A stretch of 64,000 bases of DNA from Candidatus Micrarchaeota archaeon (GTDB lineage Archaea; Micrarchaeota; Micrarchaeia; Anstonellales; JAGGVH01): NCBI GenBank assembly GCA_020854835.1, contig JAHKLX010000007.1:36044-100043 (forward strand). The letters are read 5' to 3'. Shown piece by piece: positions 9,196 to 63,357 of the stretch. The notes beneath the pieces were generated by a model that saw nothing but the letters and a program-made list of their open reading frames with translations, did no database searches and was not told the origin of the DNA. Within the stretch, counting starts at the first letter, position 1. Each line of letters opens with the position of its first letter. A program made the position numbers and the translations under genes.

Positions 9196-10023
9196 ATGTT
9201 TATGTTAATTCTACCAAAACAAAGAGAAGCATATTGGATAGCAGTAGGAATTGGTGGATTTGGAGTAATTGTAGGACTTGTAGGAGGAGGACAAATATTG
9301 TCATTCATAGGGCTGCTTGCTGCAGGTTTAGGTGCGGTATTATCCCTATTAATTTATCAATACGGGTATTTGATTGTTCCTATTTTTACTAAATTTTCAA
9401 GAATTGTAGTTGTAACTCCAGATAAAGAATATGAGATACCTCCTTCACAAGATGTTATTATTAAAAAAACAGGAGATTCATACTACGCAACAAAATTTTT
9501 GGGAGTTCAGATTTTTGAATCCGCAGCTGAAAAAAGCACCGAGGAAAATGTAACTTACATGCTCGCTTTTGAACGTGCAATTTCATCTGTAAAACATGTA
9601 ACAAAGTTTTCAATGATGGTTTATGTTTTAGATATAACAGAAAAAAAGAGAGATATTGAAACAAGAAAATATGAAGCACAACTCAAGCTGGCAAAACAAA
9701 GAGAAAAAGGTCAAGATATGGATGTGCTTTTAATTGATAAATACGAACATGAAATATCAATGTGGGAAAAAGAACTTGAAAAAATCTCAAGAGGTGAAAA
9801 ACCTATGGCAGTTGTGGCGTATATTATGACAACTGCAATCGGGGTTTCAAAAGAAGCTGCCATGGCCGCTGCAAATGGACAAGCAAACGAAATACGTGCA
9901 TCAGTTTCTAATGCACTTAATGCAAAAATAGAAATCATGAAAGCAGATGATATGCTTAGGTGCTTCCAGTGGGAATATCTTCTCCCAGTGTCATATGCAG
10001 AATGGAAACAGCAGGTTGATTAA
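9196..10023 (+). CDS. Membrane protein with coiled coil, possible VirB3/VirB4-N-terminal-like partner of the ATPase
   Basis: Two Gly-rich TM helices, alpha/beta region, charged coiled coil; 2 nt upstream of the ATPase gene. Confidence 0.6.
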   Translation: MFMLILPKQREAYWIAVGIGGFGVIVGLVGGGQILSFIGLLAAGLGAVLSLLIYQYGYLIVPIFTKFSRIVVVTPDKEYEIPPSQDVIIKKTGDSYYATKFLGVQIFESAAEKSTEENVTYMLAFERAISSVKHVTKFSMMVYVLDITEKKRDIETRKYEAQLKLAKQREKGQDMDVLLIDKYEHEISMWEKELEKISRGEKPMAVVAYIMTTAIGVSKEAAMAAANGQANEIRASVSNALNAKIEIMKADDMLRCFQWEYLLPVSYAEWKQQVD

Positions 10024-10025
10024 AT

Positions 10026-11600
10026 ATGGGATGGTTAAAAATACGAGATATATCTAATATTACTCTCGCAAGAAGAAATATTCTAGTTAGACCTCCTGAA
10101 CCCCCTCCAGAAATGCTCTGGTCCGATCCCAGTAATTCCATATTCACTGGAAAAACTAAAATATTTAACATACCCTTTTATTGGAATTATAATGAATTAA
10201 CAAATCCTCATCTGGCAATAGTCGGAATAACAGGTTCAGGTAAATCATATTTCATTAAAACTTTTTTAACCCGTGCAGCTTTGGTTTGGGACAGCAATGC
10301 ATTTATTATTGACTGGGCAGGAGAATACCGAGAATGGGTTAAATCTGCAGGAGGAACAGTTATCTCACTTGGAAAAGGATCTTATATTAATTTGTTGGAT
10401 ACTGGAGGAATGACTCCAAATAATAGAATCAAACAAATAATAAGAACTCTTGAAATATTGACAGATATAAATCAATATCCTGAACAAAAAAGATTAACTG
10501 AATTGGCAATAGAAGAAGCTTATAAAAAAGCTAATTTCAAAATGGATTCTATAGTTCAAAAAGACAGTTCTGGAACTGAATTGATTGCCCCAACATTGAA
10601 AGATGTTGTTGAAAATTTAGAAAAAACTTACAAAAGGGGAGGATATGAATATCCTGCCGAACTGCAAAATTCTATTTACAGATTGAAACAATACACAAAA
10701 ACAGGTCAAGATTTTTTTGCACAACAAAGCACTCTTGATTTAGATAAATTAACAAATTCGGGTTTAGTATCACTGGATTTGTCAGGTTTGCCAGATGAAA
10801 TATTTAGAGCGTTGGCTGCCCTTTCAATGCTCCAATTCATTAAAGAAAAAATGAGGGCAGCAGGCTGGAAAAAGAGAAAAGGAATTCAACTATTTGTTGT
10901 GTTGGATGAAGCTTGGAAAATTGCAGGAGATGAAAACAGTGATGCAGTTATGATAGTTAGAGAAGGTCGTAAATATAATTTTAGTTTGATTGTTGCGAGC
11001 CAGAACCCAACAGATATTAATGAGGCAATATTTTCAAACGTAGGAACCACATTCGTATTTAAAGTTAAATTTGAAAGATATTTGAATTATATACAAGGAA
11101 CTTTAAACTTCAGTGATTTCATTCGAGAAGAAATTTCAAAATTGGGTGTTGGACAATGCGCAGTCAATATGGCTTTTACCACGAGTGCGAATTATCCATC
11201 AACTTTTCTAGTTCAGAAAATTGAAGGTGAAGAACCTTTGGTAGAATACTTCCTTGATGTTGGCAGTGTGCTCACTGAGGAAGAAAGGAGGGATGTAAGA
11301 GTGGCAAGAAGTGTAGCAATTGAAAGAGAAGAGATGAGGAAGAGGCTTAGAATGTATGGTCTCAATGAATCTCAGCTTGAAGAAATTTCATCTCTTTTTG
11401 ATAAGAAAAATAAACATATTGACATAGTTTCATTTGTAATTCTTTTACAGAGATATGGATTAGCACGAAACAAAATAACAGCATTGTTAAAAGATTTTGG
11501 TGTTGCAGATTCAACAATCATCAACATCTTTATTAAAGCTGACTTTAAAGTTCATTCGGCGACAAGCCAGGATATTATGGATATTATTTTAGAGGAATAG
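10026..11600 (+). CDS. VirB4/HerA/FtsK-superfamily ATPase (DUF87-like)
   Basis: NPHLAIVGITGSGKS Walker A, IIDWAGEY, VVLDEAW Walker B, REGRKY..LIVASQNP. Confidence 0.9.
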   Translation: MGWLKIRDISNITLARRNILVRPPEPPPEMLWSDPSNSIFTGKTKIFNIPFYWNYNELTNPHLAIVGITGSGKSYFIKTFLTRAALVWDSNAFIIDWAGEYREWVKSAGGTVISLGKGSYINLLDTGGMTPNNRIKQIIRTLEILTDINQYPEQKRLTELAIEEAYKKANFKMDSIVQKDSSGTELIAPTLKDVVENLEKTYKRGGYEYPAELQNSIYRLKQYTKTGQDFFAQQSTLDLDKLTNSGLVSLDLSGLPDEIFRALAALSMLQFIKEKMRAAGWKKRKGIQLFVVLDEAWKIAGDENSDAVMIVREGRKYNFSLIVASQNPTDINEAIFSNVGTTFVFKVKFERYLNYIQGTLNFSDFIREEISKLGVGQCAVNMAFTTSANYPSTFLVQKIEGEEPLVEYFLDVGSVLTEEERRDVRVARSVAIEREEMRKRLRMYGLNESQLEEISSLFDKKNKHIDIVSFVILLQRYGLARNKITALLKDFGVADSTIINIFIKADFKVHSATSQDIMDIILEE

Positions 11601-12143
11601 GTGGTTCATATGGATTTGTTTAAATTGTTTAAAGGAAAAGAAAAAAAAGAAAAGACATTTGAAAATTTTGATGTTAAAAATTCAAATGTTTGTATGGAAT
11701 GTGGAAAAATAGTTATTCCATCTAAAGCTGTACCAGTAAAGGATGACTTTGTGTTGAATGTTATCAAATCCATAAAACAAAAAACAAAAACAATAAAAAA
11801 CAACAAATTATTTATATGTCCAAGTTGCTGGCCAGAATATGAAAAAAACAGAAAAAGATTTGTAAATGGAGTATTTTTCTGGAGTGTTTTGCTAGGGGTT
11901 TTTTTAGTAGTGTTATTGGTAACTCCTTTGTTAACTCAGAATTCATATCCGCTACTTAATGTTGTTTTTCTGTTGTTGGGAATTTTTGCATTTTGGGTGC
12001 TTTTAATGATCATGCAAATTTATTCTTCATATAGGCCCGGAACTGAATTTGATATTAAAAACCTTAAAGAATACACTCCTAGCAAGAAAAAAAATATTGT
12101 GGCAAAAGCTAAAAAATCAAAGAAAAAGAGGGTGAAAAAATGA
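11601..12143 (+). CDS. Zinc-binding membrane protein
   Basis: CMECG...CPSC pair, two TM helices, basic tail. Confidence 0.7.
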   Translation: MVHMDLFKLFKGKEKKEKTFENFDVKNSNVCMECGKIVIPSKAVPVKDDFVLNVIKSIKQKTKTIKNNKLFICPSCWPEYEKNRKRFVNGVFFWSVLLGVFLVVLLVTPLLTQNSYPLLNVVFLLLGIFAFWVLLMIMQIYSSYRPGTEFDIKNLKEYTPSKKKNIVAKAKKSKKKRVKK

Positions 12144-12916
12144 GTGGTCTGCCATTCCCAGGAAAACCTCAGCAAAAACAAGATAAAAAAAAGGTTAAAG
12201 ATGAAGTTAAAGAACCCCTTGTAGAGGGGTTTGAAATACCTGGAAAAAGATTGGGTTCCTCACAAGATATATTGCAGTCTTTATCACAAGTCTCATACAT
12301 TCAAACAATTGTTGATAAAGAAGATTATGTGATATTGAACGTTGAAAGCAGAGACCTAACCAATAAACCATATCTATTTTCAATAATTCACTTAAAACCA
12401 GATACTATTCAGGTTCTTTACACTGTAACCCCTGGAATGAGTCCTAGGAAAAGAAGAGTAGATATATTAAGATATTTTTTTACGGTTTTATCCATGGTTA
12501 GTGAATATTACGAAATCAGAATGGCAGTGGTTTATCAGCTTTTTGAAGATTCTATAGATAAAATTAGTGAATATGTGACGTTAGATTATGAAGAAATGTA
12601 CGCCAGATATGACTCCATAAAATCAGAAAATGAAAGATTGAAATCAGACATTGCAAAAATAAGTGAAACTAGCCGAGAAATATCAAAAGAAAATTACGAT
12701 CTTAAAACTAAAATTGACGATCTTAAAATAAAGCTCGATAGGTTGAGCAAACACAGTGACGATTCACTTAAAGTAAGATTAATGGAATGGATAAATGAGC
12801 ATCAGGGAGAAATAAATGTTCCTGAAGTTGCAAGAATGTATTCAGTGCCTGATGCAAAAATAGAAGAACTCCTTAATGAATTAATGAGAGAAGGATATTT
12901 GAAATCTATAAGTTAA
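12140..12916 (+). CDS. Coiled-coil protein with C-terminal winged-helix-like domain
   Basis: Heptad region followed by GEINVPEVARMYSVPDAKIEELLNELMREGYL. Confidence 0.7.
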   Translation: MSGLPFPGKPQQKQDKKKVKDEVKEPLVEGFEIPGKRLGSSQDILQSLSQVSYIQTIVDKEDYVILNVESRDLTNKPYLFSIIHLKPDTIQVLYTVTPGMSPRKRRVDILRYFFTVLSMVSEYYEIRMAVVYQLFEDSIDKISEYVTLDYEEMYARYDSIKSENERLKSDIAKISETSREISKENYDLKTKIDDLKIKLDRLSKHSDDSLKVRLMEWINEHQGEINVPEVARMYSVPDAKIEELLNELMREGYLKSIS

Positions 12917-12930
12917 CTGAGGGATAATAA

Positions 12931-15321
12931 TTGAAAATAAAAATCAAAAAACAAACATATAAATTTCAGATGAAAAAACCTTTTAGTTATCGTAAAAGAT
13001 TTACAAAAATTAAAGATTTTGTTAAAACTCCGATGGAGATTATAAAAGAAAAGATATCTGGAATAACTCCAAAAACGATTGTGATGTCAGGCATATTCCA
13101 GATACTTGTTTTGTTGATCGGATTTATATATATTGTCATAGGTGCAGCACCTTTTTTTACACCTTCCGAAACATTGTCCTCAAGCTCACCACCCTATTCA
13201 CTCGAGCAGTGGATAGGCCATGAAAAAATAATTAATGATTTAACCTATATGGAAACTATTTCATATCTTGGAAGTTCAAATGATATCAAACATACTTTTG
13301 CTTTGTATGGTCCTAGCAACTATACAATACGGACATCGAAAAATGGGGTCCCTTCAGTTATCTATTTTTTAGAAGTTCCTAATCAGAGATATTCATCTGG
13401 GATGCTTTCTGGAAAAGACTTATTCAAAGAATTACTAAAAGTCAAATTAAAAAACAATGGATACACCCTCATATCAATCGGTATCGAGGATATGCAAAGA
13501 TTAAAAAACGATGATGTAGTCGTCGCACCCACAGGATATTTTCCTGTTGAGTTCGCAAATAATTTAAAAACTACTATGATATTTATTGGTTCTGATATAA
13601 GGGGAGTAGATATTGATATTGAAGAAAAAGGCGCCCAGAGTGGAATAAGATCATCTAAATTAAACATATATAATGCCAGATATCTGATACGATCACCAAC
13701 AAAAAAAACATATGGGGATGTTATCGATATGTTTGAATATGATGAAGGCAAAATTGTTACAGTTCCGGGAGAATTTGAAAACGGAAGAAATTGGAATTCA
13801 ATTGATGATGCAGTTGACGATGTTGTTAAAATAATTACAGAATCACCTTGGGATGAAGTGTATGGAAATAGATATATAACTGAGGGAGTGTTGGGATTTG
13901 GCTCGGAATTTAGTGGTGACGAAGCTTATTTTTTAATTAAAAATGACGAAGGAAAGATTATAAGCTCGGGAAAAGGAGTAAGTAAAAATAGTTTGAGAGT
14001 GTATACGGCTACAAAAAACATCCCGCCCTATGGAATACATCGAAGCAGAGATGAGATATTTATTAAACCTGAAAAAATGTTTTTATCGAATGAAGAAGTT
14101 GGGAGGTATAGGGGAGAAGTTTATACTGCTCCACCTGTTGAATCCTCGCCAGTAAAAATTGCATCGATAACTACTTCAGAAATTGTTGTGGAAAACCGAA
14201 GAGAACCCTTTTTCGGACCAGGGAATTATTTGTTGGTAATATCAGATGGCCCAGTAACTGCGGGCAAGATTGGCACAATACACGGATTTACGGTTGTCGA
14301 ACCAATTATAAGCATCAACCCCAATCCTGAAACAAATACCCATATAATAACTATAGCGTGCGGAGATAGATGTGATGTTTTTGATTATGATTCAGTTGTT
14401 GTTTATATAGATGAAAAACAAGTTGGAAAATTCCAGAACAATGAAAAAACAATAACCTTGAGAGATCTTAAAATAAATCCTGAAAATCATGTGTTGACAT
14501 TAGGATTTGTTAGAGCAGATGGGAGAGAATATAGAGTTTCCAAAGAATTTTATGTTCAAAGTGTTGGACTCGACCAGTATCTAAATAATCCGATATATCT
14601 CGTTGTTGGATCAATTTTGGTGATTGTAGTTGCAGCTGCAATACAACTCAGAAGAAAGGATAAAATTGTTTATAATTTAGATATTCCTGATTTCCCACCC
14701 CTTTCTAGAATAACTGTACCATTGAAAAAAAGTACAGTAATTTCTTTGTTTGACAAGATAAACAAAGAATATGGTTGGCATTATTTGCCAATATCAAGCG
14801 AGGAATTCCAAAGTGCATTGATGAGGCTTTCTTATAGGGGAAGACCAATAAGCGCCAGCATAAATAATATTGAAAGAATATTGGATTTGTTGTGTTCAGA
14901 GGGTTATGCAAAAGTGTATAATGAGTATTACGGACTAAGCAGATGGGAAGAAGAATTAGGTATAAGTATTAAACACCTATCAATATTAAGAAAACTAAGA
15001 GATTTGTTTATAAACAATGTTCTGAGATTCGAGCCTTTTGGAACAATAAAACATTCTGATACAAAAATATACATATCTGGAAATGAATATTATGTTATTT
15101 TATTCAAAAATGCCAAAGACACCATACTGAATTCTATTGGTCCCCTATCTGAAGAAAATGTGATTATAATATTTGAAAGTACATATCAAAAAGATGAATT
15201 TCTTGAAACGCTTTATTCCAAAGACAATGAAGTTTTGGCATTCAAATTAGAATTGAATTCGCATAGAATAAAAACTTTCACAATTGAAGAGTTTGAGAGC
15301 TTTGTTAAAAGTGAGAAATAG
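12931..15321 (+). CDS. Large membrane protein (2 TM, big extracellular region, ~220-aa cytoplasmic tail)
   Basis: Hydrophobic segments near residues 55-75 and 555-573; last gene of the five-gene run. Confidence 0.7.
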   Translation: MKIKIKKQTYKFQMKKPFSYRKRFTKIKDFVKTPMEIIKEKISGITPKTIVMSGIFQILVLLIGFIYIVIGAAPFFTPSETLSSSSPPYSLEQWIGHEKIINDLTYMETISYLGSSNDIKHTFALYGPSNYTIRTSKNGVPSVIYFLEVPNQRYSSGMLSGKDLFKELLKVKLKNNGYTLISIGIEDMQRLKNDDVVVAPTGYFPVEFANNLKTTMIFIGSDIRGVDIDIEEKGAQSGIRSSKLNIYNARYLIRSPTKKTYGDVIDMFEYDEGKIVTVPGEFENGRNWNSIDDAVDDVVKIITESPWDEVYGNRYITEGVLGFGSEFSGDEAYFLIKNDEGKIISSGKGVSKNSLRVYTATKNIPPYGIHRSRDEIFIKPEKMFLSNEEVGRYRGEVYTAPPVESSPVKIASITTSEIVVENRREPFFGPGNYLLVISDGPVTAGKIGTIHGFTVVEPIISINPNPETNTHIITIACGDRCDVFDYDSVVVYIDEKQVGKFQNNEKTITLRDLKINPENHVLTLGFVRADGREYRVSKEFYVQSVGLDQYLNNPIYLVVGSILVIVVAAAIQLRRKDKIVYNLDIPDFPPLSRITVPLKKSTVISLFDKINKEYGWHYLPISSEEFQSALMRLSYRGRPISASINNIERILDLLCSEGYAKVYNEYYGLSRWEEELGISIKHLSILRKLRDLFINNVLRFEPFGTIKHSDTKIYISGNEYYVILFKNAKDTILNSIGPLSEENVIIIFESTYQKDEFLETLYSKDNEVLAFKLELNSHRIKTFTIEEFESFVKSEK

Positions 15322-20712: not shown

Positions 20713-22086
20713 TTGGGGTTGGGATGGCATATTGAAAAAACTGGAGAATATAAAATCAACCTGCCCATTTTAAGCGATGACGAAATTGAAGCTATAAAGC
20801 ACATGGCAAACATGTTCAAAGAAGTTACCAAATACAAAGAACTTGACAATCCTGACAAAGCAAAAAAAGAACTTAAAAATCTTTTGATTAAATTCTGCGA
20901 CAAGGAAGGAATTGTAATTGACAAAGAACAAGAGAATTATTTAACACAAATGGCTTTTTATAATATTTATGGGTTTGCAGGCATGGAAGAAATACTCAAG
21001 GACGAAGAAATAGAAGAAATTGGAATAATTGGTTTGGGCAAGCCAGTTTATGTTTTTGTTAGAAAACAAGGGTGGAAAAAAACAAATTTATATTATGATG
21101 AATTAGATTTTACAATTAACTTGATTAATAAAATGTCAAGAAGCATTGGGAGAAGGATAACTTATAAAAATCCTAGATTGAATGCTGTTCTTCCTGACGG
21201 TTCAAGAATGCACGCATCTATTCCCCCAATATCCAATGTGGAAGTGACAATCAGAAAATTCAAAGAAAATCCAATGACTGTGTTTGATTTGTTGAATTAT
21301 CACACAATTTCTGAAGAAGCAATGGCCTTATTATGGTTTTTAATGCAGGCAGATATATCTATTTTGATAACAGGAAACACTGCAAGCGGAAAAACAACCA
21401 CAATGAATTCTATTTTCTCATTTGTTCCTTTAAATGAAAGAATTTTAATAACAGAAGAAACTCCTGAAATAAACATACCTCACAAACATGTCGTTAAACT
21501 TGTAGCAAATCAGGAACTTGATATAAGTTTGTCTCCTTTGGTTGCAGATTCGCTTAGGATGAGACCTGACAGAGTTATTGTTGGAGAAGTTAGAAATACT
21601 GAAGAGGTTCATGCATTAATGGATACTATATTGAGTGGACAAGCAAGAGGAAGTTATGCAACTTTTCACGCACAGTCATCAAAAGAAACCTTGTCTAGAT
21701 TAAGATCCTTGGGAGTTTTGGAAATTGATCTGCCTTCGATTGATATAATTGTAATCCAAAGAAGAATGATGAAATATAATGTTAAAACAAGAAAATCCGA
21801 AGAGATTAGAAGAATTGTTGAAATAGTAGAAGTTGATAAAAACAATCCTGGAAAAACAACTCCCCTTTTCATATATGATTATGAAAAAGACAGTTGGAAA
21901 GCAGATTATCAAAATTCAGAGATTTTGAAAAGATTGTCTCTTTCACTAGGAGTTCCGCAAAAAGAAATGGAAAACGAAATAAAAACACGAACAGAATTCT
22001 TAAAGAAAAATATAAAAAAGAAATGGAATTTTGAAACTGCTGTAAACGAAATTCAAAAGTTTGCCTACGGGCTTTCGTTAGATTAG
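20713..22086 (+). CDS. Type II/IV secretion ATPase (TadA/CpaF/VirB11 family)
   Basis: LPDGSR, TIRKF, GNTASGKTT, EETPE, LRMRPDRVIVGEVR, TFHA. Confidence 0.95.
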   Translation: MGLGWHIEKTGEYKINLPILSDDEIEAIKHMANMFKEVTKYKELDNPDKAKKELKNLLIKFCDKEGIVIDKEQENYLTQMAFYNIYGFAGMEEILKDEEIEEIGIIGLGKPVYVFVRKQGWKKTNLYYDELDFTINLINKMSRSIGRRITYKNPRLNAVLPDGSRMHASIPPISNVEVTIRKFKENPMTVFDLLNYHTISEEAMALLWFLMQADISILITGNTASGKTTTMNSIFSFVPLNERILITEETPEINIPHKHVVKLVANQELDISLSPLVADSLRMRPDRVIVGEVRNTEEVHALMDTILSGQARGSYATFHAQSSKETLSRLRSLGVLEIDLPSIDIIVIQRRMMKYNVKTRKSEEIRRIVEIVEVDKNNPGKTTPLFIYDYEKDSWKADYQNSEILKRLSLSLGVPQKEMENEIKTRTEFLKKNIKKKWNFETAVNEIQKFAYGLSLD

Positions 22087-22094
22087 GTGAACTG

Positions 22095-23855
22095 ATGAAA
22101 GAATGGGTTGTGAAAATATCAAATAGATTCGGAAAAGGAATAGGAAATGCCTTTTCAAAAGAAGCAAGAACTAAAATAAACAAAAATCTTGAAACTGCAA
22201 ATATGAATGTTTCAGCAGAAAAATATCTTTCTTTTGGAATACTGCTTGCTTTTATTTCTGCAGTTTATTTTGGAACTATATCTTTTTTTATTTTGAATGA
22301 TTTTGTTTGGACAATAATAATTGTTCTTTTATCTTTTGTTTTGATTTATGTTGCAGTGAAATTTTATCCAGGTTTTGAGGCAAAGAGAAGAGGAAAACAA
22401 ATTGAAGCAGAACTTCCCACAGTTTTAAGAATGGTGGGAATACAGTTGGATATTAATATTCAGTTTGAAAAAATTATTGAAAATTTGGCAAACGAAGATT
22501 ATGAGGTTTCAAAAGAATTTGGCATTGTGTTCAGAGAGATTGGTTCAGGTGTTTCAATACCTCTTTCTCTCCAGCACATGACAGACAGGGTTGAATCTGA
22601 AATATTTAGCAGAACTGTAAACCAATTAGTTATGAATTATGAAAAAGGAGGAAAAGGCGGCGAACTTAAAAGAGTTGCAAATCAATTAGCAGAAATGCAA
22701 GTATCTGAACTTAAAGCTTTTGAATCAAAAATGGCTTTTACAGGACTTATATTTATTGCAGTTTCATGCTTGATGCCTGCTTTTTTCCAAATATTTATAG
22801 CAATAGGTGGAATTTTGGGAAATGTATCTGTAAGTTCATTACATATTTGGATAATCTTTGTTTTTGTGTTTCCAGTAATCAGCCTTATTGCTTTGCTTTT
22901 CATAAATATTTCAACTCCACCGATTGCAACTATGCACAAATCAACGTTTGAAAAAGATTTGATAATTATCCAAAGGTTTATGAAAGAGAAAAAGTGGATT
23001 ACGATAACAGATGAAAACGATGCTTCGCCAGTTAAAAAACTCGGAATCAAATTTACTATAGGGGCAGGAATAATTGCAGTTATTTTTCTTATAGGTGGAT
23101 TGATGTTCCATGATGCATTTTATGTATTGTTTTTTGTTTCTTTGGTATCCCCTTTCGTATCATATTTTTATTTCCTATTTTTGGCAGAGGACAGAATACT
23201 TAAAATGGAAAAAAAGCTTCCTGAAGCACTTACACACGCAGCAATGCTTCAAAAAGGAATGAGCACCGAACAAATTATTGGTGAAATGAGCAAACAAAAA
23301 GGACCGCTCGGAAATGAATTTAAAATTGCTTACAGACAAATCTCAGCAGGAGCAGATGTTGAAAGTTCACTTATGGCAATAGCAGAACGAAATAATTCAC
23401 TCCTTATCAAAAGGGCTGTTAAATTGATAATACATGGATACTATGCTGGAGCAGATATGTATTCTGCATTGAGGGAAACGGCAGAGGATATATACTCTTT
23501 ATTTATATTGATATCACAACGAAAATCTGTTCTTGCTTTGCAAAAATATACTCTTCTTTTGGGGGGAGCTATATTGGTGCCTTTAATTTTGGGGAGTATT
23601 CTGCAAGTGGTTGGTTCATTGAATACACACGGATTGGTGTCTGTTTTAACAGATAAAGAAATAACAGACACAGCAGATATATTAGAGACCATTAAGTCTG
23701 CAACATTTGTATATCTAATGATATTTAGTATTATATCTGGGATTATGATTGCACAACAAGAGGGAGAATCAAAAAAAGCAATAGTTTATGCAGTAATTAT
23801 TGTTATTTGTGCAGCAGTGTTATACACATTGGCGCTTAGCTCAAAAATAATTTGA
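22095..23855 (+). CDS. T2SSF-family platform protein (TadB/TadC/ArlJ-like, two GspF domains)
   Basis: Two repeats (IEAELP...SKEF and MEKKLP...GNEF) each flanked by TM helices; follows the ATPase. Confidence 0.88.
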   Translation: MKEWVVKISNRFGKGIGNAFSKEARTKINKNLETANMNVSAEKYLSFGILLAFISAVYFGTISFFILNDFVWTIIIVLLSFVLIYVAVKFYPGFEAKRRGKQIEAELPTVLRMVGIQLDINIQFEKIIENLANEDYEVSKEFGIVFREIGSGVSIPLSLQHMTDRVESEIFSRTVNQLVMNYEKGGKGGELKRVANQLAEMQVSELKAFESKMAFTGLIFIAVSCLMPAFFQIFIAIGGILGNVSVSSLHIWIIFVFVFPVISLIALLFINISTPPIATMHKSTFEKDLIIIQRFMKEKKWITITDENDASPVKKLGIKFTIGAGIIAVIFLIGGLMFHDAFYVLFFVSLVSPFVSYFYFLFLAEDRILKMEKKLPEALTHAAMLQKGMSTEQIIGEMSKQKGPLGNEFKIAYRQISAGADVESSLMAIAERNNSLLIKRAVKLIIHGYYAGADMYSALRETAEDIYSLFILISQRKSVLALQKYTLLLGGAILVPLILGSILQVVGSLNTHGLVSVLTDKEITDTADILETIKSATFVYLMIFSIISGIMIAQQEGESKKAIVYAVIIVICAAVLYTLALSSKII

Positions 23856-26045: not shown

Positions 26046-26486
26046 TTACCAACCATACATCTGTTCAATGGCTTTAGATAATAAGATCCTAAGTAAAATT
26101 CCCTCCCCTTTAGAAATATTTACATTGACTGCTTTCAAACCCTCATTTGTTTGCTGACTAACTCTTACAGAAAAACCCATACTAGAAGATGAAAAATTCA
26201 CAACTGCATTCTTAACGCTTTCAGCGGTTTTATATTCTCCTTTAGAAGGTTGATGAAAAAGTTTAACTTCACTAGTACAACCTTCTAAAACCTCCAAAAT
26301 CCTGCCCATATCAGATGCTGAAAGTTTGACAGTTATTTTATTGTCCCAGTCAAATCTATCCTCAGATTTCTGGTTAGCGCATTCCATAAAAACTGATTGT
26401 TTTAGTTTGTTGAAATCTACCTGTAAAGCAGATCCATTGATGTTTTTATTTGCTTTGTATATTGCAAAAGACTTACTTCTTTCCAT
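26046..26486 (-). CDS. Whirly-like single-stranded nucleic-acid-binding protein
   Basis: FAIYK...SAL, FDWDNK...LS..DMG, LFHQPSKG and terminal GW align by eye with the plant Whirly domain. Confidence 0.75.
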   Translation of the reverse strand: MERSKSFAIYKANKNINGSALQVDFNKLKQSVFMECANQKSEDRFDWDNKITVKLSASDMGRILEVLEGCTSEVKLFHQPSKGEYKTAESVKNAVVNFSSSSMGFSVRVSQQTNEGLKAVNVNISKGEGILLRILLSKAIEQMYGW

Positions 26487-35950: not shown

Positions 35951-37105
35951 TCAGCTTACGATTTCAGCATATCCCTTACACATTAGATATAATCCATAAC
36001 AAATAGGAAGCTCTGCTTCCCCCATATTTAATTCATCATAGTTAGTTCCTTTTATATTAAATACAGGAACCTTTTTAAGTATATTTACTTTAACGTTTTC
36101 GCTGTCAGTGAACGCTACTGCGTGTATTAACGGATCGAACTTGTCAATAAACTTATAATCAAACTCCTTAGCACACAAAGAACTGCCACTGTGAATGGTG
36201 TCAGGAATTCGTAAAACCTTGGTTGTGTCAATTGTAACATTGACATCAGTTGGCTCGCCAACCATGACTGCACTATAATTAACAAGATCTTTCCAAACCT
36301 CTTCTTTTTTAGCAACCTTTACTTTGTCCCAATGACCTTCTTCAACACCCTGTTTAAATTTTTCAAGCTTTGGTTTTGACCTTAATTCCTTGGGCAGTAT
36401 ATCTGATTTGTGATCCTGCTTCATTAAAATACGAGCTATTCTTCCTGCCCATCCAAAATCATCAGGCCGAGGACCTTTAGAAATTATTGTTATTGGACGG
36501 CCCAACTCATGGATTTGTTTTTGTTGGATTTCAAAGAAATTTTCAAATTTCAATCCTCTGCCTGCTATATAATCAACAATCTCACGTCGTTCCTTAGAAG
36601 AAAGATTTTTAACCGAATTGTCATAAACTCTTATGTGGTATCCTCGGTTTCCAGAAAAGTTTATTGAAATATTATCTTTGTTGAATCCAAAATCAGGTAT
36701 TAGAAAGTCATCTACCAATTTCAATGCGATTTCTTTAACCTTTTCAAAAGCAAGCGGATGCATTAAGCTATGATATTCTTTGTACTGGTTTTTTGGATCC
36801 CATTCTTCAGGATGGAGATCCAAATCAAAAACCAGATCTGCACCCTGCCAAACCTTGCTGGCCATAGGTCTTGCGTCCGGTTTGTCATAATATGCAGATG
36901 ATGCAGAAACATAAAACGGAACTGTGTTCCTTAAAAAATCATTGAATTCTTGATTGTTTTTAAACCCTAGATGTCTTACTGCTATTTTCTGCTCTAAAGT
37001 TCCATATCCTACTTCTCTGGCACCAATATCTCGAGGATTAACACTAACTGAATCATAATATTGTTTTATCATATGCTTTAAATATTGCTGTGATTTTTCA
37101 TTCAT
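35951..37105 (-). CDS. priS: DNA primase catalytic subunit
   Basis: GADLVFDLD, FSGNRGYH, D..VTID...LRIP..IH. Confidence 0.95.
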   Translation of the reverse strand: MNEKSQQYLKHMIKQYYDSVSVNPRDIGAREVGYGTLEQKIAVRHLGFKNNQEFNDFLRNTVPFYVSASSAYYDKPDARPMASKVWQGADLVFDLDLHPEEWDPKNQYKEYHSLMHPLAFEKVKEIALKLVDDFLIPDFGFNKDNISINFSGNRGYHIRVYDNSVKNLSSKERREIVDYIAGRGLKFENFFEIQQKQIHELGRPITIISKGPRPDDFGWAGRIARILMKQDHKSDILPKELRSKPKLEKFKQGVEEGHWDKVKVAKKEEVWKDLVNYSAVMVGEPTDVNVTIDTTKVLRIPDTIHSGSSLCAKEFDYKFIDKFDPLIHAVAFTDSENVKVNILKKVPVFNIKGTNYDELNMGEAELPICYGLYLMCKGYAEIVS

Positions 37106-40149: not shown

Positions 40150-40219
40150 GCCAGTATAAACACTGTTAATGCTTAAAAATGTTGTGAATGAATATACTCA
40201 AAATAAAAAGGTGATTTAT

Positions 40220-41380
40220 ATGTCTTCAAAGAAATATTATTTTACTTCAGAATCTGTAACCGAAGGTCATCCTGACAAAGTGTGTGATCAAATCTCAGAC
40301 GCCATTTTAGATGAGCTTTTAAAACAAGATCCAAAAACAAGATGCGCTGTTGAAACAGCAGTAACAACAGGCTTGGTAGTTGTTATGGGAGAAATAACAA
40401 CTAAAGGATATGCAGAATTTCAACAAATCGCAAGAAACACGATAAAAGAAATAGGTTATACAAAACCCGAATATCTTTTTGATTATCAATCATGTGGGGT
40501 TTTATCCTCTATTCATGAACAGTCTCCAGATATTTCAGAAATGGTTACTGAAGAGGGAGAGCATGAACAGGGTGCAGGAGACCAAGGAATTATGTTTGGG
40601 TTTGCAACAAATGAAACTCCCGAATTAATGCCATTGCCAATTGTTTTGGCACACAAACTTGCAATGAAATTAACAGAAGTCAGAAAAAACAATACATTGA
40701 AATATTTAAGACCAGATGGAAAAACACAGGTAACAATAGAATATGAAGGTGCGAAACCATTAAGGTGCCACACTGTTGTGGTTGGTGCACAGCACGATCC
40801 AGATGTTTCAGCTGAAAAAATTAGAAACGATATAATAGAACATGTTGTAAAACCAATCTGCGGAAAATGGTTTGATGAAAAAACATTAGTTTATGTGAAT
40901 GGGACTGGAAAATTTGTTTTGGGCGGACCTGCAGCAGATTCTGGAGTAACTGGAAGAAAAATCATAGTTGATACTTACGGAGGAAGAGGACATCATGGAG
41001 GGGGCGCATTCTCTGGAAAAGATCCTTCAAAAGTTGACCGTTCAGGATCATATATGGCGAGATATGTTGCAAAAAATATTGTTGCAGCAGGTTTAGCAGA
41101 ACAGTGTGAAGTTCAAATTTCCTACGTTATAGGTGTAGCAAAACCATTATCTGTTTTTGTTGATACAAGAGAAACAAACAAAATACCTGTTGAAAAGATT
41201 GAGGAATTGATTGAAAAAAACTTTTCTTTCAAGCCAAAAGACATAATAAAAAAACTAGATCTTTTAAGACCCATTTACAGAAAGACTTCTTCATATGGCC
41301 ATTTCGGAAGAAATGATGCTGATTTCACATGGGAAAACACAGATATGGCAGAGGAATTGAAAAAACAAGCAGGAATATAA
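40220..41380 (+). CDS. metK: S-adenosylmethionine synthetase, bacterial/eukaryotic type
   Basis: [35 protein letters not shown]; ATG after AGGTGA. Confidence 0.97.
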
Positions 41381-43987: not shown

Positions 43988-46120
43988 TTAGTTGGTATTT
44001 GCATCTATTTTTTTTCTTATAGAAGGTTTTAACAAGGAATAGGGTATCAGTAATCTATCATTGGGTTTATACATAGTAAATATGTTTGATGTTAATTGAA
44101 TTGTTTGCATATTCTCTCTTGATGCTCCACCAATACAAAATTCTTCTAAAGCCGTTATTGTTTTTTCGCGTGTGTTGTCAGATATTATTATTTCGCCCAA
44201 TTCTGGACCATTGAATCTAACATAATCAACAGGAACCCAAAAAACTTGTGCAGTTTTCATTGGATCTTTTGAATCGCGGTCCCCAGTACTTGTAAGAGTT
44301 TCTATATTGTTGAAAGTCTCTATATCTCCAACTAAATTTTCATTAGATTCTTTCAAAACAGGAGTTAGTGAAAATACAGGGGTTGCCCATTGGGGATAAG
44401 AAAAAGTGTAAAACTCTACAACATCTCCTTTTTCATAACCTTGGATATCACTTTTTGCTCGGTTTGATTGAACAATTAAATTTCTTTTCGTCCCCAACCT
44501 ACATTCAAAAGATATATCTTCTTTTGGTTTTTCTTTAGAAGATTTTTCTAGCTCTAATTCAACAACCTCTTTTTTTTCTCTTTTGAACAAGCGGGTAAAA
44601 AAATTGTCAATTTTATCGCCCAGCGCAGGCAAAGAAAAAACATCCGGAGAAGAATTTGATGACACCAATTCTTCTTCAATTTGCCATCGCGAAACTATTT
44701 CTCCAACATTCATTGATGTTCTTGCGTGCTCATCTGCACCGCTCCTAAGCCTATCTATAAATTTATCTGTAAGCGCATCCAAACTAATTGTGTTTATTGA
44801 ATTGGGGAAATTTTTGTTGTTTTCTCTTAAGGGCAAATAACCTTCCAACACTCTTTGAAAACAAGTTCGGGGGTATTTCTCCCCTAAATGATGAAACGCT
44901 GCTGTCATTGCTGAAACAAATTTGAATCTTTCTGCCTCTGAAGCTTTTGAAAAAAGAGACACGAAAAAAAAGCTTCTTTCTGTCATATTGTCTTCGTTCA
45001 TATAAATGTTCATAAACTTTTTGAAATTATACAATGCGAGATAATAACTAAATAAAATTTGATCTTTTGGATTAACACATTCCTTGAATTCTGAAGGCAG
45101 TTGTAAATAGTTTTTTTGTTCATCAGTTAAAGATAAAAAAACACTTCTGTCAAAAAAATTAAAAAATTTGGATATTGAATTGCGCGTCATATCAACAAAC
45201 TTGGGTGTTTTTGCACCATCATAGCCAATAAGTCCTTCGTAGGTTGCTTTAATTGCTTGTGTGTGTCCAAAACTAATTTCCTTATCATAAATCGCAAAAC
45301 AAGTATAGGGATTATACCCTGCAGTGAGCATAAGCTCAAACATTTTGGCCCTTACTAAATCTGTGGGTATTCTTTTTTCTTCTTTTCTATTTCTTTGTCC
45401 GCTTATGATATTATCGGGATTTTTAGGCAGAATAATTGTTTTTGTTCCTTTTGGACTAGTTTCTTGACAACTTATACCAATTAAAGTTGCAGCATTTACA
45501 TAATTAAAAGGTGAGGGAATAACAACACTGTCAAATCCATTTAAAGAATATGTTTTATCTGAAAAATCCACTATTCCCAAATCCTGAACATAAGATATGA
45601 TTTCGTGAGTTTCTTCATAATAAGATGATAAATTATAAGTTGGGTATTCTACAACATCCATGTTTTCTTTTATACTATCTATTGTCTTTTTATCAGAAAC
45701 TAATCTTTTTTTTCGGTTGAACAGAAAATCAGGTTGCAAATATGTTATATACTCATCATTTGGGGAAATTCCGTAAATCTCAATAAATGATATGCAGATA
45801 TCTAAGTTTACTCTTTGTTCGTCCGTAAGATTAAGTGTATTGGGATCTTTGTATAAAAACTCTCCAACCTCATCATATATTGCTTTTATATTGTTTAAAT
45901 CTAATCCCTGTAATAAATTGACAATTTGTTGTTCTGATAAATTTGGATTGTAAATAATCGGCTCAATTTTATAATACATTGAAAATCTAGGAAAATCAAC
46001 TTTTTCACCAGTCTTGGTTATTCTAATTATGCCCATATCCTTTAGAGTGGATGATATATTGTCATTTTGATTCACGATATCCAACACATGTGTTTCTGCT
46101 CTGGTTTTAGTCTGGGCCAT
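43988..46120 (-). CDS. Large orphan protein, possible divergent lytic transglycosylase plus LysM-like domains
   Basis: 710-aa ORF; LIGISCQET, SFGHTQ...TY, NPKDQI...YL, AAFHHLG; C-terminal ...PNDRLLIP. Confidence 0.5.
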   Translation of the reverse strand: MAQTKTRAETHVLDIVNQNDNISSTLKDMGIIRITKTGEKVDFPRFSMYYKIEPIIYNPNLSEQQIVNLLQGLDLNNIKAIYDEVGEFLYKDPNTLNLTDEQRVNLDICISFIEIYGISPNDEYITYLQPDFLFNRKKRLVSDKKTIDSIKENMDVVEYPTYNLSSYYEETHEIISYVQDLGIVDFSDKTYSLNGFDSVVIPSPFNYVNAATLIGISCQETSPKGTKTIILPKNPDNIISGQRNRKEEKRIPTDLVRAKMFELMLTAGYNPYTCFAIYDKEISFGHTQAIKATYEGLIGYDGAKTPKFVDMTRNSISKFFNFFDRSVFLSLTDEQKNYLQLPSEFKECVNPKDQILFSYYLALYNFKKFMNIYMNEDNMTERSFFFVSLFSKASEAERFKFVSAMTAAFHHLGEKYPRTCFQRVLEGYLPLRENNKNFPNSINTISLDALTDKFIDRLRSGADEHARTSMNVGEIVSRWQIEEELVSSNSSPDVFSLPALGDKIDNFFTRLFKREKKEVVELELEKSSKEKPKEDISFECRLGTKRNLIVQSNRAKSDIQGYEKGDVVEFYTFSYPQWATPVFSLTPVLKESNENLVGDIETFNNIETLTSTGDRDSKDPMKTAQVFWVPVDYVRFNGPELGEIIISDNTREKTITALEEFCIGGASRENMQTIQLTSNIFTMYKPNDRLLIPYSLLKPSIRKKIDANTN

Positions 46121-48074: not shown

Positions 48075-48548
48075 TTATGCGCATTTACCAACTAAAGCTT
48101 TTTCTCCACGTTGAGTGTTGCCAGTGATATCATTTGTATTGTATAAAAATGATACATACATTTCAAATGAATCGCCTGAAGAGCATGATGGTGCGTTATC
48201 TATTTCTAGTGTAACAGTGTTTCCTGAACCTACAGATCCGCTGCTGGATGGTGTCCAAACAACCGGTGTTCCGCCAGGTCCCGGCGTGAGAGTTACATTC
48301 GCAATTTCAAGAGATTCTGTTCTTGAATTTCGTACAACCAATGTCAAATCAGTTCCAGAATATCTGAAATCTGTTATCTGAAAAGGACTGGCTGTACCTG
48401 CCCAATATGCTCTAGATTGTGTTTCTTTGGCATCACTGCTAAGTCCTGGGAAAAAACCCAATAGTGCGATAGCAACTAAAGCTACTATCAATACTACACC
48501 CAATAGTACTAAATATTCTGTTGCCCCTTGTCCTTTCACATAAATCAC
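48075..48548 (-). CDS. Archaeal type IV pilin (class III signal peptide)
   Basis: KG/QGATEYLVLLGVVLIVALVAIALL cleavage motif. Confidence 0.9.
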   Translation of the reverse strand: MIYVKGQGATEYLVLLGVVLIVALVAIALLGFFPGLSSDAKETQSRAYWAGTASPFQITDFRYSGTDLTLVVRNSRTESLEIANVTLTPGPGGTPVVWTPSSSGSVGSGNTVTLEIDNAPSCSSGDSFEMYVSFLYNTNDITGNTQRGEKALVGKCA

Positions 48549-48610
48549 CGATTAACAATATAAAGATTAAATTTATAAATAGTGATGTTGGGTTCTCCCT
48601 CATTAAAAAA

Positions 48611-49903
48611 TTATTTTTTGCGTGATTTTGTGAAAGCATTTATCAATATAAATAAAATTGGGAATAGCAATATCCACCAATATTTTGACATTTCTCCGAC
48701 AATGAACTCGTCATTATTGAAAATGACGGGGTGATTATTAACTTCGAAATTTCCATTGTATTCGAACCCGAACATATTTAGATTATAAGGGACTTTATAA
48801 TTGCCTTGATTTAATTCCATTATATCTGCTTTTCGCAATAAAACCTTTTTTTCATACGGCGCAAGAACAGTTATTCCTTTCTGATGCCCCCCTACCTCAA
48901 TTGGCAAAACCAAAGTGGTGGGAATAAAATAAAATTTGTTTTCTTGGTTTTCCAAAAGAATTTTTATTTCAAAATAAGAATCATATTTTGTAACATCGTG
49001 TGAAACTACAAAATAAATTTTTCGGTCATTTGTTTTGATCTTTTCTATATTAACTGAAGATGTAAAACTTATATCAAAATCACCATATCCTTCTGCCGAA
49101 ACAGAATCTGTGAAAGCATCATCTTGTTCGTCAGACGATGAAAGAATTATTCTGTTGCCGGACAAATAAATATATTCACCAAAAGTGGGATCAACAGGGA
49201 GCCAGCCATATTCTAGATTATAATACTCCGTCCATGCATGAAACTCCCATGTGTTATTTGAGAAAACATAGCCTTTTACAAATCGCGAAGGTATTCCAAT
49301 AGAACGAAACATTGCAATTGACAAATGCGAGAATTCATCACAAGTTCCTTTTTTATTATGAAAAACATATGTTGCTGGCATTTTGTGTTCTGTATATTCT
49401 TCATCGTATTCAACATTCTTATACACCCATTCAGTTATTGCAACAGTGCTTGAAAAAACATTTTCTTGATCAAAAGTTTGTGAAAATTGTTTTATTTCTT
49501 GGTTAGGGACTGCTAAAGCACCAGATCTTTCTGCATCCAAATCTTCATAATCTTTTTTGAGGATTGGGTGTTTTATATCCCAATTATCATAATCAGTTTT
49601 GATATTTGCTATCATCTTAATTTTTTCGGTTGAAGAAGGATCTGTCACCCGGATAATATAAAATCCATCCTCAATGAAATACGGTCTGTTAAAATCAACT
49701 TCGACTTTTTGAACATTGTTAGAAGGTATTTCAGCTACCTTCAATACAATCGTGTGGACCTGACTTGCATTCTCTGTTTGGAGAGTCCATTCTTTTTCAA
49801 AAACAAATTCTCCCCCAGATATAGAGTTATGGGCATAAGAATAAGATAATACTAGAAAAACAAACAAAAACCAAAACTTCATGTTTAGAATTATCATAAC
49901 CAT
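48611..49903 (-). CDS. Secreted, membrane-anchored transglutaminase-like protein
   Basis: GTCDEFS, GIPSRFVKG, HAWTEYY, WLPVDPT triad; signal peptide and C-terminal TM. Confidence 0.9.
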   Translation of the reverse strand: MVMIILNMKFWFLFVFLVLSYSYAHNSISGGEFVFEKEWTLQTENASQVHTIVLKVAEIPSNNVQKVEVDFNRPYFIEDGFYIIRVTDPSSTEKIKMIANIKTDYDNWDIKHPILKKDYEDLDAERSGALAVPNQEIKQFSQTFDQENVFSSTVAITEWVYKNVEYDEEYTEHKMPATYVFHNKKGTCDEFSHLSIAMFRSIGIPSRFVKGYVFSNNTWEFHAWTEYYNLEYGWLPVDPTFGEYIYLSGNRIILSSSDEQDDAFTDSVSAEGYGDFDISFTSSVNIEKIKTNDRKIYFVVSHDVTKYDSYFEIKILLENQENKFYFIPTTLVLPIEVGGHQKGITVLAPYEKKVLLRKADIMELNQGNYKVPYNLNMFGFEYNGNFEVNNHPVIFNNDEFIVGEMSKYWWILLFPILFILINAFTKSRKK

Positions 49904-62235: not shown

Positions 62236-62304
62236 TAATGTGTACAAAGGTTTATAAACATAAATACACATTAATTAACATAGTATAACATAAAGGTGAC
62301 ACCC

Positions 62305-63357
62305 ATGAAAATGCAAAGATTAATAAAATATCCATTCGGCGAAAAGCCAAATTCAAAAAGCATTAGGTGCAGCCCTCCCGATGATATCTCTGTTAAACCT
62401 GGCAGTATTGTAAAAAATTATGTCGATAATGAAAAAAGCATTGCTGGAGAAATTAGAAATTTAAAAGAAAATGAGAGAAAGTTTAGTAAAGACCATACTG
62501 TGCTTGCCAATTTAGAAATTGATTCACCAGAAATTCAAAGAATAATGGGCGAATTTAAAGAAGGTATTGAAAATAATGAAAATAGGGTCGAAAGATTAAG
62601 AGAGATTATTGGTTCAAATATTGAAATAGCGATGAATGCACTTTATGATAAGAGGATGGAATTGTGGAAAAAAGAAGCACAAAGGGAATTTATTGTTCCG
62701 TTTTTTGGAAAAGAAGGCAGAGTCCCATATCCTTTCAACACTATATTTCCAACAAGTTGCATTAGTGAACATACAATCGCTTTCTTAGATGTTGATTACT
62801 TGAAAAAAATTAATGATCAGAAAGGTCACATATATGCAGATATGGTTTTAAGACAAATATATAAAACAATTAATTTAGTTGCCAAAGAATATGATGGAAT
62901 GGCATTTAGATATGGTGGTGACGAAGTTATTGTTTGGTTTATGTGTGACGTAGAAAAAGCTGAAAAAGCAATTGTTGAAATGAGGAGAAGAATAGCAGAA
63001 ATTGAGGTAGATAAATACTTTTTAGATTGTGGCACAAATAGAACATATATCACCTTATCTGCAGGATTAACAAAAATTAATGGAACTTTTGAAAGAACTT
63101 TGGATATTGCCGATAAATTATTATACAGATCAAAAGACGGCAATGAAGATGTCGCAGGCAGAGATTGTATAACCATAAACAATATAAAAATTGATAATCT
63201 AACTGAAGAAGATATGGAAAGATGGACACCTGTGAAATTTAAGGAATATATTGATTACCAAAACCTGGAAAGAAAATATGCGGTTGTAATGAAAGATGAA
63301 AAACCTGTTTTAATAGATAAAGAAACAAATGAGGTTTTGGATATTTTAGAAGATTAA
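62305..63357 (+). CDS. GGDEF-domain (diguanylate cyclase-like) protein
   Basis: FLDVDYLKKINDQKGHIYAD, FRYGGDEV, TLSAG, ADKLLY.SK...GRD; TTTATAAA at 62251 and AGGTGA SD. Confidence 0.88.
   Translation: MKMQRLIKYPFGEKPNSKSIRCSPPDDISVKPGSIVKNYVDNEKSIAGEIRNLKENERKFSKDHTVLANLEIDSPEIQRIMGEFKEGIENNENRVERLREIIGSNIEIAMNALYDKRMELWKKEAQREFIVPFFGKEGRVPYPFNTIFPTSCISEHTIAFLDVDYLKKINDQKGHIYADMVLRQIYKTINLVAKEYDGMAFRYGGDEVIVWFMCDVEKAEKAIVEMRRRIAEIEVDKYFLDCGTNRTYITLSAGLTKINGTFERTLDIADKLLYRSKDGNEDVAGRDCITINNIKIDNLTEEDMERWTPVKFKEYIDYQNLERKYAVVMKDEKPVLIDKETNEVLDILED

Follow-up and report, generated by a model that had tools for sequence, protein, structure and literature searches.

Does the chromosome of a Micrarchaeota archaeon encode a wall-cutting enzyme that curated sequence models fail to see? 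This question is raised by an open reading frame (ORF) at 43988..46120, on the minus strand of a 64,000-nucleotide stretch of DNA from Candidatus Micrarchaeota archaeon (positions 36,044 to 100,043 of contig JAHKLX010000007.1, assembly GCA_020854835.1), which we call the window. The ORF encodes a protein of 710 amino acids plus a stop codon (P0001), which belongs to a cryptic family labelled hypothetical by standard annotation. A first-pass annotation had read it as a possible lytic transglycosylase with a LysM-like tail, potentially exported by or serving a VirB4/VirB2-like system. The cryptic lytic-transglycosylase-like domain and its LysM-like tail are supported by fold and profile comparison, and the link to a secretion system is contradicted by gene position and distribution. 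We consider it probable, if far from certain, that the protein is a very divergent member of GH23 (the SLT/goose-lysozyme family) in which a helical N-terminus and a catalytic core are followed by two LysM-like modules.

The whole protein was modelled with AlphaFold2 from a 10-sequence alignment, giving a mean predicted local distance difference test (pLDDT) score of 80.4, with values of ~90 over residues 1-480, very low values in the linker 481-558 and moderate ones in the C-terminal part. Using VIA-align on 48,161 representative chains, we found that residues ~160-480 of the model form a lysozyme-like fold nearest to the GH23 lytic transglycosylases. The first nine rows were all of the SLT type (Z 10.8-8.5, root mean square deviation [rmsd] 2.7-6.5, 145-181 residues aligned): Slt (5o2n_A; Z 10.8, rmsd 3.1, 159 aligned), MltC (Z 10.4), Cj0843c (9.9), Slt70 (9.8), the phi6 lysin (9.5), MltF (9.4), MltE (9.2), P. 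aeruginosa Slt (8.8) and phiKZ gp144 (8.5). Among the first 37 rows, 35 are titled lytic transglycosylases, lysozymes/muramidases, wall hydrolases, chitinases/chitosanases or related glycanases, and the titles of the other two (8kea_A and 7r6s_B) name no function. The tool cautions that helical models with Z below ~13 can reflect a common arrangement; the fold assignment was accepted because this list is uniform, not by the Z value alone. Thus, the lysozyme-like catalytic fold claimed by the first-pass annotation is backed by a predicted structure nearest to GH23/SLT enzymes, although Foldseek matches were not significant. The Foldseek rows of highest probability in the PDB were MltE (probability 0.51, TMt 0.48; E value not significant), followed by MltC, MltF, pesticin and an archaeal chitinase, and the row of best probability in BFVD was a viral SLT protein (probability 0.69, E value not significant). 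Language-model neighbours of the protein were wall-hydrolase clusters (scores 0.82-0.86), to be taken as leads only. The parts of the ORF, from the N to the C terminus of its product, are as follows.

45521..46120, minus strand: N-terminal helical region, residues 1-200, no function assigned (AlphaFold2 model, pLDDT ~80-95)
44681..45520, minus strand: GH23/SLT-like lysozyme-fold core, residues 201-480 (VIA-align, and hhalign against 29 PF01464 segments)
45458..45493, minus strand: predicted catalytic helix, residues 210-221, AATLIGISCQET (secondary structure, conservation, hhalign pairing)
45461-45463, minus strand: codon of the candidate general acid E220 (invariant, pairs with the SLT Glu)
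45320..45457, minus strand: putative family-specific insertion, residues 222-267 (secondary structure, alignment gaps, hhalign gain)
45284-45286, minus strand: invariant D279, just upstream of motif II
45257..45274, minus strand: motif II, SFGHTQ, residues 283-288, equivalent to the GLMQ of SLT (conservation and hhalign)
44441..44680, minus strand: low-confidence linker, residues 481-560, of variable length, ending in a short beta-hairpin at residues 537-549
44210..44425, minus strand: LysM-like unit 1, residues 566-637, beta-alpha-alpha-beta, ending in QVFWVP (domain model, hhalign)
44030..44209, minus strand: LysM-like unit 2, residues 638-697, beta-alpha-alpha-beta, ending in DRLLIP (domain model)

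The border between the first two parts is not sharp: Slt-type chains align to the model from residue 67 and single-domain enzymes from residues 157-162, so that the last helix of the N-terminal region (164-180) is already covered by the alignments with single-domain lytic transglycosylases. An Atlas search with the N-terminal 200 residues returned no usable match. In the linker, whose length differs between relatives, pLDDT in the whole-protein model is <50 over residues 481-540 and 549-558.

We then considered which residues the family conserves. Its close members are six relatives with 43-58% identity over the full length, which begin within a few residues of the start Met of P0001; the named records are metagenome-assembled genomes of Micrarchaeota or Micrarchaeia. 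More distant relatives were found by database search at E values of 5e-13 to 7e-5 (P0008-P0010), and a weak match in genome G005 led to a further subgroup, namely P0011 (locus L013) and P0012-P0014. Family proteins are 570-750 amino acids long. One of them, P0007, a 395-residue fragment of the protein at locus L008, is named "predicted nucleotidyltransferase" by one source, a name for which we found no support. The family was found in 4/301 sampled genomes of the phylum, the window's own genome counted, and a same-genus genome that is 88% complete had no match to it. The labels of the relatives, together with the archaeal ribosomal, primase and S-layer genes of the window, are consistent with the organism call. 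Thirteen members were aligned. They share E220, D279, S283, G285 and Q288 without exception (13/13), as well as A407 and G413, while being otherwise only 22-59% identical to P0001.

To compare these residues with those of recognised enzymes, we used hhalign with 29 genuine PF01464 segments as the reference, all taken from within the phylum, the locus of the unpublished genome G029 being left out. With unedited alignments, the first 10-member set gave an E value of 0.08-0.1, which is not significant, the 13-member set gave 0.009, and the seven distant members gave 3.2e-4 (reversed control, 0.19). The stretch before E220 resembles the SLT catalytic helix, and a G-Y-N-P after residue 267 resembles the SLT sequence that follows Glu-Ser. 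The canonical Glu-Ser...G-(F/Y)-N-P would thus be split by 46 residues (222-267), comprising a beta-hairpin (227-250) and a helix (254-266), and this segment is shorter in the distant members, with gaps in P0008-P0014. When residues 222-267 were treated as an insertion, the hhalign score of the 13 members rose from 21.7 to 36.0 (probability 76%, E 2.2e-5). The seven distant members then scored 41.9 (probability 91%, E 1.2e-6), the four-member G005 subgroup reached an E value of 3.3e-6, and the six close members went from E 0.25 to E 0.0073. Two control deletions of like size brought no gain, and reversed-sequence controls scored 10.5-13.7. Because the first boundaries had been picked with the motifs in view, 76 deletion windows were then scanned blind. 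The best of them was 220-265, the sole window to score above 30 (median, 21.6). By these profile comparisons, the resemblance to SLT is more than chance.

The predicted structure points the same way. In the model, helix 210-221 ends at E220 and is followed by the hairpin 227-250, the helix 254-266 and a small hairpin carrying SFGHTQ, an order that fits an insertion. Moreover, enzymes with the catalytic Glu on their first helix start aligning at model residues 201-210 in VIA-align. In the chitosanase 7c6d_A, titled "E19A mutant," chain residue 2 aligns to model residue 204, and this offset between the ranges would place E19 near residue 221.

All eight strings quoted in the first-pass annotation were located in the ORF product: LIGISCQET (residues 213-221), SFGHTQAIKATY (283-294), NPKDQILFSYYL (350-361), AAFHHLG (407-413), IETFNNI (600-606), QVFWVP (625-630), SNIF (678-681) and PNDRLLIP (686-693). 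Its motif I, LIGISCQET with Glu-Ser/Thr, holds up with the insertion handled, as E220 pairs with the Glu (29/29 SLT segments) and T221 with the Ser (29/29). The same is true of its GxxQ motif II, since SFGHTQ pairs with GLMQ through the invariant G285 (SLT G, 27/29) and Q288 (SLT Q, 26/29). The middle of GLMQ is H-T in P0001 and L-G, A-F or A-Y in distant members. The motifs III and IV proposed there are of uncertain register, since the two alignments place A-Y-N-A-G differently. The 13-member alignment puts it at L363-Y364-N365, with Y364-N365 on Y-N, and the distant-member alignment puts it at the AAFHHLG column, which reads AAMYNSG in P0011-P0014 and AAYHNFG in P0009. Residue 266 was also considered as the canonical Glu, as favoured by the unedited distant alignment. 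It was rejected as the main reading, since the column differs from member to member (T,S,N,N,A,M,N,E,E,R,R,T,D), with Glu only in P0009 and P0010, and since a much higher score is reached with the insertion model.

When folded separately, the last 178 residues had a pLDDT of 87.5 and formed two beta-alpha-alpha-beta units. In the numbering of this domain model, unit 1 consists of strand 35-42, helices 49-56 and 64-71 and strand 94-98, and unit 2 of strand 108-114, helices 119-129 and 136-145 and strand 157-161. LysM domains dominate the VIA-align list for the tail, in which Z is at most 4.0, a low value because the domains are only ~50 residues long; chains titled LysM stand at ranks 2, 5, 8, 17, 29 and 44 (rmsd 2.1-3.7, Z 2.4-3.8). 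They align to model residues 36-105, corresponding to unit 1, as with the LysM of AtlA (48/51 residues, rmsd 2.3) and that of a Volvox chitinase (48/49 residues), and Ecp6 aligns over both units (101 residues). Further matches were the LysM domains of T. thermophilus and the LysM region of MltD (8rhe_A, 1e0g), and chains from phage and contractile-system baseplates align to residues 106-164, corresponding to unit 2 (Z up to 4.0). When compared by hhalign with nine genuine PF01476 segments, unit 1 reached a probability of 82% and an E value of 1.1e-5 (reversed control, 0.3). Unit 2 aligned over its full length and in the right register with a weak E value of 0.009 (reversed control, 0.69). The predicted LysM-like tail is thus found in both units by model and VIA-align and, for unit 1, by profile as well.

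How might such a protein work? In the mechanism that we propose, the LysM-like units would hold a glycan containing N-acetylglucosamine (GlcNAc), and the core would cut a beta-1,4 glycosidic linkage in it, for which E220, where helix 210-221 ends, would be the general acid. Cleavage could be of the lytic-transglycosylase type; alternatively, D279 could serve as a second residue in a hydrolytic reaction like that of lysozymes and chitinases. A second acid has a role in GH23 hydrolases, and D279, an invariant Asp situated in the hairpin region that follows the Glu, would be more in keeping with hydrolysis than with a transglycosylase reaction.

As to the substrate, the genome bin G000 (2.04 Mb, 145 contigs, 87% complete, 5.6% contaminated) had no match to SEDS (PF01098) or GT51 (PF00912), and its one match of the Mur-ligase type is also given by archaeal control genomes. 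No murein polymerase gene having been found in this genome, the likeliest substrate would be a foreign wall polymer, most simply the bacterial peptidoglycan of a sludge habitat. The DNA occurs in sequencing runs labelled sludge metagenome, most of them perhaps from the source sample and none listed as an RNA run. The protein may, as the first-pass annotation inferred, hint at interaction with bacteria. It is conceivable, because the substrate-contacting motifs are strongly divergent and the owner is an archaeon living in sludge, that this GH23 variant is aimed instead at a wall glycan of archaea, for example that of the pseudomurein of a methanogen host, and we give the idea little credence. 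If it were true, the protein would be a glycan-cutting pseudomurein enzyme by which a DPANN symbiont breaches its host; to our knowledge, only peptide-cutting pseudomurein enzymes have been described. Weak PF01464 matches, and matches to PF01476, elsewhere in G000 sit on the high-numbered contigs C71, C103, C119, C122, C128 and C135, and these contigs may belong to another organism.

Any such polymer would lie outside the cell. A Kyte-Doolittle scan of the whole protein agrees with the earlier statement that no signal peptide is evident: neither a signal peptide nor a membrane segment was found, the maximal 19-residue value being 1.16 at residue 199 (threshold, 1.6). In all, 11/13 aligned members have neither feature (scanned for P0001-P0010 and judged by eye for P0011-P0014). 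In the distant P0009 and P0010, the N-terminus does have a hydrophobic segment (2.05 and 1.43), which suggests, as far as the sequences go, that the ancestral location faced outward. By a crude hydrophobicity measure, canonical SLT proteins sampled from the phylum lack an N-terminal hydrophobic segment in 15/29 cases and have one in 11/29, the remaining 3/29 having open 5' ends. The leaderless state, being common to many recognisable SLT proteins of the phylum, raises the question of how wall-cutting enzymes get delivered. The same counts could speak for a cytoplasmic salvage enzyme that trims imported muropeptides or chito-oligosaccharides as an amino-sugar source for an organism with little biosynthesis. 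We regard this as doubtful in view of the hydrophobic segments of P0009 and P0010 and of the extracellular action of such enzymes, since, in all characterised cases known to us, the polymers on which LysM modules and SLT-type enzymes act are found outside the membrane.

Returning to a divergent GH23 enzyme acting outside the cell, several observations weigh against it. Neither domain is detected by curated sequence models. Pfam, NCBIfam, PHROGs and the PDB sequence set held nothing meaningful for P0001 (best PHROGs E value, 0.031), nor did a family profile searched against the PDB. PF01464 gave no match even at E <= 10 for P0001, P0003, P0006 and P0008-P0011, PF01476 gave none at E <= 10, and scans of the own genome with either model did not reach the ORF. 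The best Z value, 10.8 for a helix-rich model, falls inside the range about which VIA-align cautions, and Foldseek gave no match at E <= 0.001 against the PDB (whole and C-terminal models) or BFVD (whole model). The unedited alignment of the distant members puts the SLT Glu-Ser at 266/267, where P0001 has Thr-Ala, and the six-member close clade, unedited, does not surpass its reversed control (E 0.25 versus 0.21). The motifs of P0001 are degraded, with GHTQ for GLMQ, Thr for Ser after the Glu and an ambiguous A-Y-N-A-G register, and Phe401 stands at the column that pairs with a Tyr of the SLT profile. For an enzyme acting on an extracellular substrate, the leaderless state is peculiar. Lastly, the genome-wide absence of polymerase genes is weak evidence, because the bin is contaminated and twice the size of its relatives (~0.6-1.6 Mb). 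The best PDB profile match, a crotonase (E 0.0038), lies over the linker region and was judged spurious.

Some of these observations would be expected of a pseudo-enzyme that has kept the GH23 fold and the LysM-like modules, has lost cutting and now serves glycan binding or adhesion, for instance to the wall or sheath of a partner. The degraded motifs of the window's clade and its unedited profile, which finds no SLT match, would fit such a protein, and so would its fast divergence relative to a neighbouring gene. Against this stands the retention of E220, D279, S283, G285 and Q288 in every aligned member at 22-59% identity, which is the pattern of a maintained active site. We therefore hold loss of activity to be unlikely, while taking it more seriously than any other alternative considered here.

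Is the gene part of a secretion system or a mobile element? The window is ordinary archaeal chromosome, with genes for ribosomal proteins, primase subunits, an S-layer protein and aminoacyl-tRNA synthetases. Its GC content is even, at 0.30-0.38, and that of the gene is the same as that of its surroundings. The ORF is flanked by MetK, DUF1015 and Trp/Tyr-tRNA synthetase genes on one side and by HD-domain and KaiC-like genes on the other. The synthetase neighbour is kept in two relatives (85-87% identity) and the DUF1015 neighbour in one (73%), and the SLT/LysM-like protein itself is only 51-58% identical in the two relatives with the conserved synthetase. This combination of conserved neighbours and lower protein identity points to a vertically inherited and fast-evolving gene, not to an obvious mobile element. 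We would thus picture a chromosomal gene passed down vertically in a narrow Micrarchaeota clade and changing fast.

Service to, or export by, a VirB4/VirB2-like system, as the first-pass annotation had proposed, does not agree with this setting. The window does hold a HerA/VirB4-like operon (9196-15321) and an archaeal type IV pilus ATPase/platform pair (20713-23855), for which a VirB1-like helper could open the wall or by which it could be exported. However, housekeeping genes separate the ORF from both, the distances being 32 kb and 20 kb, and the only VirB4/HerA-like gene of the window, at 10026-11600, is ~32 kb from the ORF. Orthologues of this ATPase occur in 261/301 genomes of the phylum (unpublished G029 and G198 counted in; 54-84% identity among the matches listed) versus 4/301 for the family. 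Co-occurrence with VirB4 is therefore uninformative, the ATPase being near-universal. The adjacency to a secretion cluster that is typical of VirB1 was not found either, the neighbours being those named above, of which the synthetase and DUF1015 genes are the conserved ones. A helper of a type IV secretion or conjugation machine is accordingly very improbable. The operon itself is a five-gene cluster on the plus strand around a HerA/DUF87/AAA_10/TraG-P-loop ATPase. Four of its proteins have no Pfam match, and it has the appearance of a core system, not of a mobile conjugation machine.

Endolysins are typically leaderless, so a remnant of a virus or mobile element, whether an endolysin or a virion-associated lysin, would account for the missing signal peptide. 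Indeed, the structural matches include phage lysins (phi6, phiKZ gp144 and phi29 gp13) as well as baseplate proteins of the LysM-like kind. The chromosomal position among housekeeping genes is, however, conserved in three genomes, BFVD gave no match at E <= 0.001, PHROGs gave nothing better than 0.031, and the GC content is like that of the surroundings. A viral origin thus has hardly any probability in our view.

Among known systems, the divergent GH23 enzyme that we favour would stand closest to the family 1 lytic transglycosylases, i.e., GH23 SLT enzymes (PF01464; E. coli Slt70, MltC and MltE, and P. aeruginosa Slt). The folds are alike (Z 9.2-10.8, 159-161 residues aligned), a Glu at a helix end is followed by Ser/Thr, G-x-x-Q lies in the following hairpin, and the profiles match at E values of 2.2e-5 to 1.2e-6. 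Unlike these enzymes, P0001 is not detected by Pfam, would carry 46 extra residues after the Glu, has GHTQ for GLMQ and an ambiguous A-Y-N-A-G register, has a core of ~280 rather than ~120-170 residues and lacks a signal peptide or lipobox. GH23 hydrolases share the fold as well. With 201 residues, the alignment of the archaeal chitinase 5xsv is the longest (Z 8.4); a g-type lysozyme complex (4g9s_A) scores Z 7.0 and the chitinase of Ralstonia A-471 (3w6b_A) Z 6.4, but goose-type lysozymes and GH23 chitinases have no sequence-level match to P0001.

The order of a GH23 domain followed by LysM modules is that of MltD-type and other SLT+LysM wall enzymes. A recognisable SLT occurs in 58/301 phylum genomes (unpublished G029 counted in) and a recognisable LysM in 5/301. 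Four genomes have both in one open frame, three of them belonging to the same archaeal order as the window's organism:

L052:1480-3429: recognisable SLT+LysM protein of 649 amino acids in G084
L053:1580-3148, minus strand: recognisable SLT+LysM protein of 522 amino acids in G083
L054:1214-3061: recognisable SLT+LysM protein of 615 amino acids in G054

These three archaeal proteins are like P0001 in architecture, in overall size and in having no signal peptide evident by eye. Neither hhalign (E 0.035) nor BLASTP (E >= 0.007) links them significantly to the present family, and, unlike theirs, the LysM units of P0001 escape PF01476.

That such enzymes are present in these archaea is not new, and the surprise is moderate. 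In three papers, SLT-domain proteins of DPANN archaea are read as tools against bacterial walls (PMC8204110; PMC10936187; PMC9723730). A further paper describes lytic murein transglycosylase genes in three Micrarchaeota genomes and already gives the interaction-with-bacteria reading for these recognisable SLT genes (PMC5864196). The large SLT proteins of Woese- and Pacearchaeota and the transglycosylases of Micrarchaeota are like P0001 in that a bacterial-type wall-cutting domain in DPANN is read as a sign of contact with bacteria (PMC8204110, PMC9723730, PMC5864196). As described there, they were found by standard annotation, reach up to 3,000 amino acids and are extracellular or Sec-exported. 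The present family, by contrast, is missed by standard annotation, measures 570-750 amino acids and is leaderless in the window's clade. Literature word searches returned no description of it, a protein family without a name being beyond the reach of such searches.

The novelty lies in a divergent GH23+LysM variant that curated models miss and whose catalytic motif is split by an insertion. The 46 residues right after the putative catalytic Glu would hide the family from sequence models: standard hidden Markov models would miss it because the insertion splits the motif, which makes it a clear example of this effect. If the family is active, surveys of GH23/SLT genes that are used to infer which DPANN attack or attach to walled cells undercount. 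Genomes G000, G005 and G007, for instance, carry the cryptic family though they have no PF01464 match at the search threshold.

Four other features of the window were recorded.

48075-49903, minus strand, 2 kb from the ORF: a small protein whose signal peptide is of class III (archaeal pilin type), adjoining a 430-residue transglutaminase-core protein with hydrophobic ends
40169-41380, plus strand: S-adenosylmethionine synthetase, three-domain MetK (PF00438/PF02772/PF02773, E 1e-45 to 1e-66)
62296-63357, plus strand: a 353-residue protein with a GGDEF diguanylate-cyclase domain (PF00990, E 1e-15)
26046-26486, minus strand: a 146-residue protein matching the Whirly family of single-stranded-DNA-binding proteins (PF08536, E 5e-12)

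The two proteins at 48075-49903 are possibly a surface- or pilus-associated pair. Three-domain MetK, which we take to be the bacterial/eukaryotic type and not the archaeal one, could mean that this archaeon has a further gene of bacterial type. The GGDEF protein lies in an archaeal chromosome, and cyclic di-GMP signalling domains are unusual in archaea. The Whirly family is known mainly from plants.

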